From Escherichia phage 212, in sequence record PQ765507: 64,000 nt of DNA. One strand, given 5' to 3'. The notes under the pieces are model-generated. The model had not been told where the DNA came from. It made no database searches and saw nothing but the letters and a program-made list of their open reading frames with translations. The position numbers and the translations under genes were made by a program. How positions within the stretch are numbered: position 1 is the stretch's first letter; each line of letters opens with the position of its first letter. Shown here piece by piece: positions 37,676-38,383 of the stretch.

Positions 37676-38383
37676 ATGAACTATCTAAAACATTACAATA
37701 ACTTAATCCAGCGAGCCAAAACTCGAGCACCCATTGATGGTTACAAAGAGAAACACCACATCATCCCAAGATGTATGGGTGGATTAGATACCGGTGAAAA
37801 TTTAGTTGAGCTCACTGCTCCTGAACATTTTGTCGCCCACTTGTTATTGGTTAAAATTTATCCAGATAATCATTCACTTGCTCATGCCGCGAAAATTCTA
37901 ATGGGCTCCAACAATTACAATAACAAACAATTTGAATGGGTGCGTATCCGCGCCGTTGAGACTTCCATTAAGTTTCACACTGGGCGTAAACGTTCAAAAC
38001 AAACATGTGAAAATATTTCAAAAGCTCTTAAAGGTAAGAAATATGGTCCACGCTCTGAAGAGCATTGCAAGAAGTTGTCTGAAGCGGCTAAAGGCAAAAA
38101 ATTCTCTGAAGAACATTGTAAGAAATTATCAGAAAGAGTGTTTACAGATGATTGGCGAGCAAAAATATCCAAGGTAAATAAAGAAAGAGTTTTGGTAAAT
38201 CATAGTGAAAAAATAAAGCAAGGTATTACTGATGATGTCAGAAAACGTTTATCAGAGCTTAATAAAAATGCTCCCCGTCACACCTGTGAACACTGTGGAA
38301 AAATAACAAATCCAGGCAACTATAAACGTTGGCATGGTGAAAATTGTAAGGTACTTAAAAATGGCGTACTCCGGGAAGTTTAA
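37676..38383 (+). CDS. free-standing HNH homing endonuclease with NUMOD3 DNA-binding repeats
   Basis: HNH core HHIIPRCMGGLDTGENLVELTAPEHFVAH; tandem NUMOD3-like repeats (SEEHCKKLSEAAKGKK, SEEHCKKLSERV); C-terminal Cys pairs. Confidence 0.8.
   Translation: MNYLKHYNNLIQRAKTRAPIDGYKEKHHIIPRCMGGLDTGENLVELTAPEHFVAHLLLVKIYPDNHSLAHAAKILMGSNNYNNKQFEWVRIRAVETSIKFHTGRKRSKQTCENISKALKGKKYGPRSEEHCKKLSEAAKGKKFSEEHCKKLSERVFTDDWRAKISKVNKERVLVNHSEKIKQGITDDVRKRLSELNKNAPRHTCEHCGKITNPGNYKRWHGENCKVLKNGVLREV

Follow-up and report, generated by a model that had tools for sequence, protein, structure and literature searches.

The T4-like phage family is known for its abundance of Mob-type homing endonucleases. In I-HmuI and I-TevIII, both of which are intron-encoded, a HNH catalytic domain is combined with an extended modular DNA-binding region. 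The gene described here has the same build in a motif-level comparison, and it is not intron-encoded.

Two described Mob systems were used for comparison. T4 MobE nicks codon 42 of the downstream nrdB gene in endonuclease-free phage, and the flanking DNA is co-converted (PMC2790892). The evidence for MobE is in vivo nicking only. MobA, found in gene 39/60, inserts in its target and splits it, together with a bypass cassette of 50 nt.

We analysed a stretch of 64,000 nucleotides from Escherichia phage 212 (PQ765507), in the following called the window, with respect to an open reading frame of 235 aa at 37676-38383 on the plus strand. The phage belongs to Gaprivervirus, a T4-like genus, and has a VR20/SP18-like backbone. 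The ORF is very probably a free-standing Mob-type (MobE-like) HNH homing endonuclease gene located in the divergent spacer between genes 53 and 4 (53|4). This placement agrees with the initial annotation of the sequence, as gp53 is found on the minus strand to the left of the ORF and gp4 on the plus strand to the right.

The gene belongs to PHROG 655, as does T4 MobE, and both proteins are arranged as an N-terminal HNH part and a presumably DNA-binding C-terminal part with NUMOD3-like repeats and a zinc finger. Each gene stands free between two essential genes and reads towards its probable target, which follows downstream; flanking DNA is co-converted in both cases. They differ in locus and target: MobE is located at nrdA|nrdB and targets nrdB, whereas the window gene is located at 53|4 and its presumed target is gene 4 or the spacer. 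With the MobA element the gene shares a Mob-family HNH gene accompanied by a diverged part-copy of the target gene, and overlapping out-of-frame ORF ends. Unlike MobA, however, the window gene is intergenic and gene 4 is whole.

Family membership and protein domains

The protein matches the PHROG 655 'homing endonuclease' profile over residues 1-225 with an E-value of 1.6e-60, and tblastn matches to it were found in 1088 phage records, which places the ORF far beyond chance. T4 MobE is 38.5% identical to the protein with 96% of the query covered (tblastn, E 6e-32).

Within Straboviridae, 53|4 genes in the same position and orientation are found in UPEC07 (QUL77590, 98.7% identical), phiR1-RT (61%), KpV477 (ANT40596, 57%), PSTRCR_121 (QQV89007, 45.5%) and KEN22 (39%). 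The UPEC07 protein is already labelled homing endonuclease, and the same public label is used for related genes at this locus in Klebsiella, Providencia and Yersinia phages. The exact window protein is absent from a collection of 15 billion sequences, NCBIfam gave nothing relevant for it, and literature searches found no paper on the 53|4 endonuclease locus. No other Mob-type gene turned up in the window when its six-frame translation was scanned with HMMs. The gene is an unremarkable added member of the Mob family; copies at this locus have been annotated before. Taken alone the finding in the window matters little, as it adds another Mob-type homing endonuclease to a phage family rich in them.

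The N-terminal HNH nuclease domain covers aa 1-102 (37676-37981, plus strand). Its core consists of His27/His28 (codons at 37754-37759), Asn42 (37799-37801), His51 (37826-37828) and His55 (37838-37840), all on the plus strand. These five residues are invariant in two family alignments of 53 and 65 sequences, respectively, and in the 53-sequence alignment Y23, E25, P31, G36 and L58 are invariant as well. The Pfam HNH profile (PF01844) scores below the gathering score for the window protein (15.1 bits vs 21.4, E 0.027) and is carried by a few homologues. A family profile aligns the HNH motif to that of McrA (6ghc) with an E-value of 6.8e-4, and also to the HNH motifs of a group II intron maturase and of Cas8f-HNH. 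A single-sequence search of PDB returned McrA alone (E 0.64), and for I-HmuI no significant sequence or fold match to the window protein was found.

The HNH domain is followed by NUMOD3-like helical repeats at aa 103-198 (37982-38269, plus strand), which presumably form a DNA-binding linker. Three repeats are visible by eye, SKQTCENISKALKGKK, SEEHCKKLSEAAKGKK and SEEHCKKLSERV, together with two weaker copies. Pfam NUMOD3 (PF07460) scores 18.8 bits on the window protein, which is under the cut-off of 20.4 (E 0.0015); a precomputed PF07460 match is present in most homologues. The C-terminal part carries a CCHC zinc finger composed of C204, C207, H220 and C224 (38285-38347, plus strand), each at least 90% conserved in the 53-sequence alignment. 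Given the residue conservation in the family, both the catalytic HH-N-H-H motif and the zinc finger are intact. The initial annotation had described a canonical HNH core and at least two NUMOD3-type repeats. Both are visible in the sequence, and the catalytic His and Asn residues are retained across the family.

AF2 models of the whole protein (pLDDT 88.9) and of residues 1-102 (pLDDT 91.7) are confident. They show a beta-beta-alpha unit at residues 25-61 and thereafter one helix per NUMOD3-like repeat. In a Foldseek search with the isolated N-terminal domain HNH nucleases rank at the top, at E-values above 0.1, which are not significant, and full-length fold searches were uninformative. Nuclease activity of the protein, as well as its target, is predicted from sequence.

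Junctions, gene 4 alleles and transfer

The junctions were determined by comparison with 11 relatives without the gene, i.e. eight endonuclease-free Gapriverviruses and three metagenomic contigs (L022, L023, L025) carrying the same gp4 allele. In the window, 741 bp (37620-38360) replace an invariant 34 bp, TAAATAAGTATATCAATATTTATTAGGAGGCTAT, of the 48-bp 53|4 spacer. The empty spacer is identical in the eight genomes and reads AAAGCCTCCATTTA|TAAATAAGTATATCAATATTTATTAGGAGGCTAT|ATG. Homology ends after CCATTTA (37619) and resumes at the ATG of gp4. Right of the insertion, the sole fixed difference from the allele-matched empty contigs is an element-specific G at 38366 (gp4 nt 6), where these three contigs have an A. 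The element is therefore taken to extend from 37620 to approximately 38366 on the plus strand.

Identical junctions are occupied in 5 sequences and empty in 11. Matches to the 2-kb region are found in 85 phage records; of these only TH55, TH22 and UPEC07 carry the ORF, and in about 30 Gaprivervirus records the 53|4 spacer is empty. T4 has a spacer of 47 bp between genes 4 and 53 and no gene. The endonuclease gene is polymorphic in its presence or absence at one precise, fixed site, and the event is a replacement of 34 bp by 741 bp, not a clean insertion.

The initial annotation had no T4 gene at this position, which is correct, and the ORF had been read as a mobile insertion to be defined by comparing the 53-4 junction with that of ORF-free relatives. 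This comparison defines the inserted segment as 37620-38366, and the ORF is far from present in all T4-like phages. Mobility is borne out by the occupied and empty sites and by the presence of the cassette in diverged backbones, whereas a simple insertion does not describe the exchange.

Gene 53, encoding the baseplate wedge, is located at 37003-37605 on the minus strand (Pfam Phage_gp53, E 6e-74) and is of the VR20/SP18 type. Left of it, also on the minus strand, is gp5 (35264-37006). Gene 4, the head completion nuclease, is located at 38361-38810 on the plus strand (Pfam Tn7_TnsA-like_N, E 6e-21) and is followed by gp2 at 38798-39631 on the same strand. The gene 4 allele of the window, here denoted 'B', and allele 'A', the common one in Gaprivervirus, share 77-79% identity as far as approximately position 38783.

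Between endonuclease-bearing and common endonuclease-free genomes all 56 of 56 fixed differences are found inside gp4, up to column 423 (around 38783). There are none in 3 kb of gp53/gp5 and none in gp2, and gene 53 of the window is not co-inherited with the endonuclease. The boundary around 38783 is where homology resumes and not a map of the cut; with alleles A and B being 22% divergent, recombination resolves only where homology resumes. Chimeras of the two alleles, which are this far apart at the DNA level, were seen in 0 of 16 sequences.

All five endonuclease-bearing sequences carry allele B. The exact gp4 protein of the window is found on four metagenomic contigs, one with the endonuclease (L024) and three without (L022, L023, L025). 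The latter three have an ordinary empty spacer and a gp4 allele that is 98-99% identical to that of the window at the nucleotide level. Strict co-inheritance of allele B with the endonuclease, as a co-conversion tract, was also considered and is weakened by these three contigs. Allele B without the endonuclease is found in VR7-like, VR20-like and TH55-like gene-53 backgrounds, which means that the region recombines anyway, and this could explain part of the mosaic. In a search of the phage collection for the donor of the allele, nothing closer than 78% was found outside the allele group.

Over 24 kb, the backbone of the window is closest to VR20 (96.2% identical) and SP18 (96.6%), both without the gene, and is 86.3% identical to the carrier TH55. 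Compared with TH55/TH22/UPEC07, the identity is 88.6% for gp53, 95.1% for the endonuclease gene, 98.7% for gp4 and 93.3% for gp2. The corresponding values for SP18/VR20 are 97% for gp53, 77-78% for gp4 and 97-98.5% for gp2. The local mosaic is explained as a VR20/SP18-like backbone carrying the endonuclease gene together with a diverged gene 4.

The metagenomic contig L024 has a gp53 which is 88.6% identical to that of the window, and a cassette which is 99.6% identical. The window and L024 differ at 94 positions in 36639-37582 (10%) and at 4 positions in 37583-38692 (0.36%). As the same cassette is present in two backbones 10% apart, it has moved between backbones. The divergence of the endonuclease gene and its flanks is discordant, with horizontal spread and flanking co-conversion.

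Compared with the TH55-type copy, the endonuclease gene has 31 synonymous and 4 non-synonymous differences, giving a dN/dS of 0.029. The protein is thus under selection and not a decaying relic. Among the nucleotide differences from the TH55/UPEC07 copy, 32 of 35 are found in the first 425 nt of the gene, and the 3' 283 nt as well as gp4 are nearly identical. This suggests a possible recombination breakpoint inside the endonuclease gene, near 38100.

One alternative is improbable: the endonuclease could be a passive passenger, inactive or no longer homing, with the patchy distribution and the mosaic produced by general T4-like recombination. The three gene-53 backgrounds in which allele B is found without the endonuclease speak for this, as they imply that the region recombines independently. 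An inactive selfish gene should decay, however, and the low dN/dS and the retention of all catalytic and zinc-binding residues argue against it. So does the left break relative to L024, located within approximately 37 bp of the insertion junction, and so does the linkage to gene 4, which is kept across at least five genera.

Expression signals and proposed mechanism

Two overlapping divergent boxes of the T4 late promoter type, TATTTATAAATA, are found by motif at 37646-37657, one on each strand. The TATAAATA box is at 37650-37657 on the plus strand and at 37646-37653 on the minus strand, giving an overlap of 4 nt. Perfect TATAAATA boxes occur 19 times in the window vs 4.5 expected, and their strand tracks the gene orientation with a switch exactly at 53|4. 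The endonuclease would be transcribed from the plus box at 37650-37657, as would gp4 by read-through, and gp53 from the minus box at 37653-37646. KpV477 shares the overlapping TATTTATAAATA promoter motif with the window, and the TATTTATAAATACCT motif is also found upstream of the related gene in this Klebsiella phage.

The left junction falls within the TATAAATA box of the resident gene 4; a pair of boxes of its own is carried by the cassette. The initial annotation had a plus-strand promoter overlapping the late promoter of gene 53. An overlap of 4 nt between the boxes is indeed present, but both boxes lie within the inserted DNA, and the resident promoter region has been replaced.

A Shine-Dalgarno sequence, GAGG, is found at 37663-37666 on the plus strand, 9 nt before the ATG of the endonuclease. 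No hairpin sequestering the ribosome binding site was found at the endonuclease start (z -0.22), and no intrinsic terminator was found in or around the ORF. T4 mobE is promoterless, translationally coupled to nrdA and has an internal terminator, whereas the window gene comes with a late-promoter box and a strong Shine-Dalgarno sequence of its own and without the terminator. A further difference from mobE is that the 3' end of the window gene overlaps the downstream gene by 23 nt (38361-38383, plus strand), an overlap already noticed in the initial annotation. The last 7 endonuclease codons and the stop codon constitute the first 23 nt of gp4, out of frame.

The gp4 gene of the window is without its GGAGG Shine-Dalgarno sequence and has a weak AAGG at 38348-38351. 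From homology with the empty-site genomes, the true start of gene 4 is 38361, giving 149 aa. In the UPEC07 record, gene 4 starts at an upstream in-frame ATG (38334 in the window; 2835 in L001) and is 158 aa long, and gene callers often give a gene 4 of only 117-118 aa in endonuclease-bearing contigs. For annotation the start at 38361 should be used and not the upstream ATG at 38334.

A sigma-70-like match is located across the left junction at 37616-37644, with TTTACA, 17 nt, TATACT and a TG upstream, matching 10 of 12 positions. Sigma-70-like matches in the region are not in excess of those in shuffled sequences.

The following homing mechanism is proposed by analogy with MobE, i.e. with the nicking of nrdB and the inheritance of its flanks. 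The gene's own TATAAATA box would drive late transcription, and its good Shine-Dalgarno sequence would direct translation. In cells infected by a carrier and a relative, the relative's endonuclease-free allele would be nicked or cut by the N-terminal HNH domain, guided by the NUMOD3-like repeats and zinc finger to a site in the conserved 48-bp spacer or within approximately the first 100 nt of gene 4. Through T4-type recombination-dependent repair the endonuclease gene would then be copied from the carrier genome; a recipient with allele A, which is 22% divergent, would receive all of gene 4 along with it. The carrier would be immune because its spacer is replaced, because its gene-4 allele is different, or both. 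The cassette would supply replacement late-promoter boxes for both essential neighbours, and read-through would account for the expression of gene 4, whose translation would use the weak AAGG or depend on coupling. Occupied and empty sites occur in nature as pairs, which makes this a tractable system in which the target of an uncharacterised Mob enzyme could be mapped.

The promoter arrangement is also relevant to a second alternative, which we consider very unlikely. The protein could be a domesticated HNH/DNA-binding protein that excludes competing phages or satellites, or that regulates or assists the expression of gene 4 or 53. The strong purifying selection speaks for this, and as genes 53 and 4 have no perfect late-promoter boxes other than those in the cassette, there would be selection against its loss. 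A parallel argument has been published for the nrdB promoter inside mobE (PMC2790892). However, T4 and most members of the genus fare well in its absence, and the gene is sporadically distributed and horizontally transferred, which is the usual pattern for a selfish homing gene, not for a host function.

Linkage to gene 4 and a frameshift in other genera

The position was examined for homologues with at least 45% identity, and 10 of 10 are located immediately upstream of gp4. These ten are from UPEC07, KpV477 (Klebsiella Jiaodavirus), PSTRCR_121 (Providencia), phiR1-RT (Yersinia), avDM5 (Aeromonas) and five metagenomic contigs. In Aeromonas phage avDM5, the left neighbour of the endonuclease is a 5.1-like gene and not gp53, and among the Straboviridae 53|4 relatives the left junctions differ by lineage. 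Because the close homologues are tied to gp4 despite a differing left neighbour, the target of the lineage is probably in the 5' region of gp4 or in the upstream spacer. For the window gene we infer a target in the 53|4 spacer or the 5' part of gene 4. A more distant homologue, 39% identical, is located elsewhere: in an unrelated phage, it is flanked by the terminase and portal genes.

Other homing endonuclease genes are found at the 5|53, 4|2 and 2|3 junctions in some Gapriverviruses. The occupied junctions are 2|3 in L001/L011, L014 and L015, 4|2 in L003/L019 and L004, and 5|53 in L019, L016 and L023. The occupants are MobB-like genes, an 'endonuclease' and a GIY-YIG/NUMOD3 gene. With other homing endonuclease genes at three neighbouring junctions, this stretch of 5 kb is a hot spot. 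In the window itself the 53|4 occupant is alone in the 5-kb stretch.

In several other genera, the linked gp4 has a conserved +1 frameshift caused by an extra T in the T-run after a conserved TGGGAR, around codon 31. The frame is broken in the Klebsiella phages KP182, KpnM6E1, KEN22 and UTI-K1, in Yersinia phage phiR1-RT and in the metagenomic contigs L032, L036 and L037, and many more Klebsiella records are annotated as "head closure protein (x2)". Frameshifted gp4 is located at 2659-3109 in L007, 1432-1882 in L027/L028, 1402-1852 in L029 and approximately 3186-3636 in L031, as well as in L032, L036 and L037. A -1 deletion lying 40 nt upstream compensates for the shift in KpV477 (compensated gp4: L005 2686-3135). 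The endonuclease-free phages KP179, PKO111 and JEC have an unbroken gp4.

Many of the Straboviridae 53|4 relatives thus have a frameshifted gene 4, whereas that of the window is intact. It is one open frame, it aligns codon for codon with the endonuclease-free alleles, and no frameshift or bypass signal was found in it.

In Jiaodavirus, the diverged block linked to the endonuclease is gp4 nt 1-92, with an identity of 71-74%, and the rest of the gene is 89-96% identical. For the 29 codons upstream of the shift in the frameshifted alleles, pS is 0.44-0.81 vs a pN of 0.03-0.22. With pN well below pS, the upstream segment is still under selection at the protein level and the shift has been kept over a long divergence. 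Three candidate explanations are possible from the sequences: a programmed +1 frameshift at UUU-Y, a split gene with an internal start at GGGAG-N7-ATG, or a hitch-hiking mutation giving immunity at the target site.

The wider lineage, with a conserved frameshift carried into an essential gene in other genera, is more interesting than the window gene. A tentative reading, which we regard as possible and rather doubtful, is that the gp4-linked Mob lineage targets gene 4 near codon 30 and spreads a protected version of it. The protected version would be the whole diverged allele in the window. In Klebsiella, Yersinia and others it would be a diverged 5' block plus the conserved +1 frameshift, tolerated by frameshifting at UUU-Y or as a split protein. 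If true, MobA and the gene 60 bypass would be joined by a second case in which recoding or gene fission in an essential phage gene is maintained by a homing endonuclease.

That the window itself holds a MobA-type composite, i.e. an endonuclease with a replacement target-gene segment and a recoding signal giving self-immunity, is hardly credible: the Klebsiella, Yersinia and metagenomic relatives do link the endonuclease to a diverged 5' block of gp4 and a frameshift around codon 31, a pattern resembling the homR-plus-bypass cassette of MobA elements (bioRxiv 10.1101/2022.08.31.505936), but gene 4 of the window is unbroken and without a recoding site, and the element ends at gp4 nt 6 when compared with same-allele genomes.

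Elsewhere in the window, two tandem Gp23/Gp24 capsid paralogues of 427 and 426 aa are located at 5731-7014 and 7015-8295, both on the minus strand. Each matches Pfam Gp23 with an E-value of about 1e-97, and they adjoin the presumed gp23 at 8729-10288.
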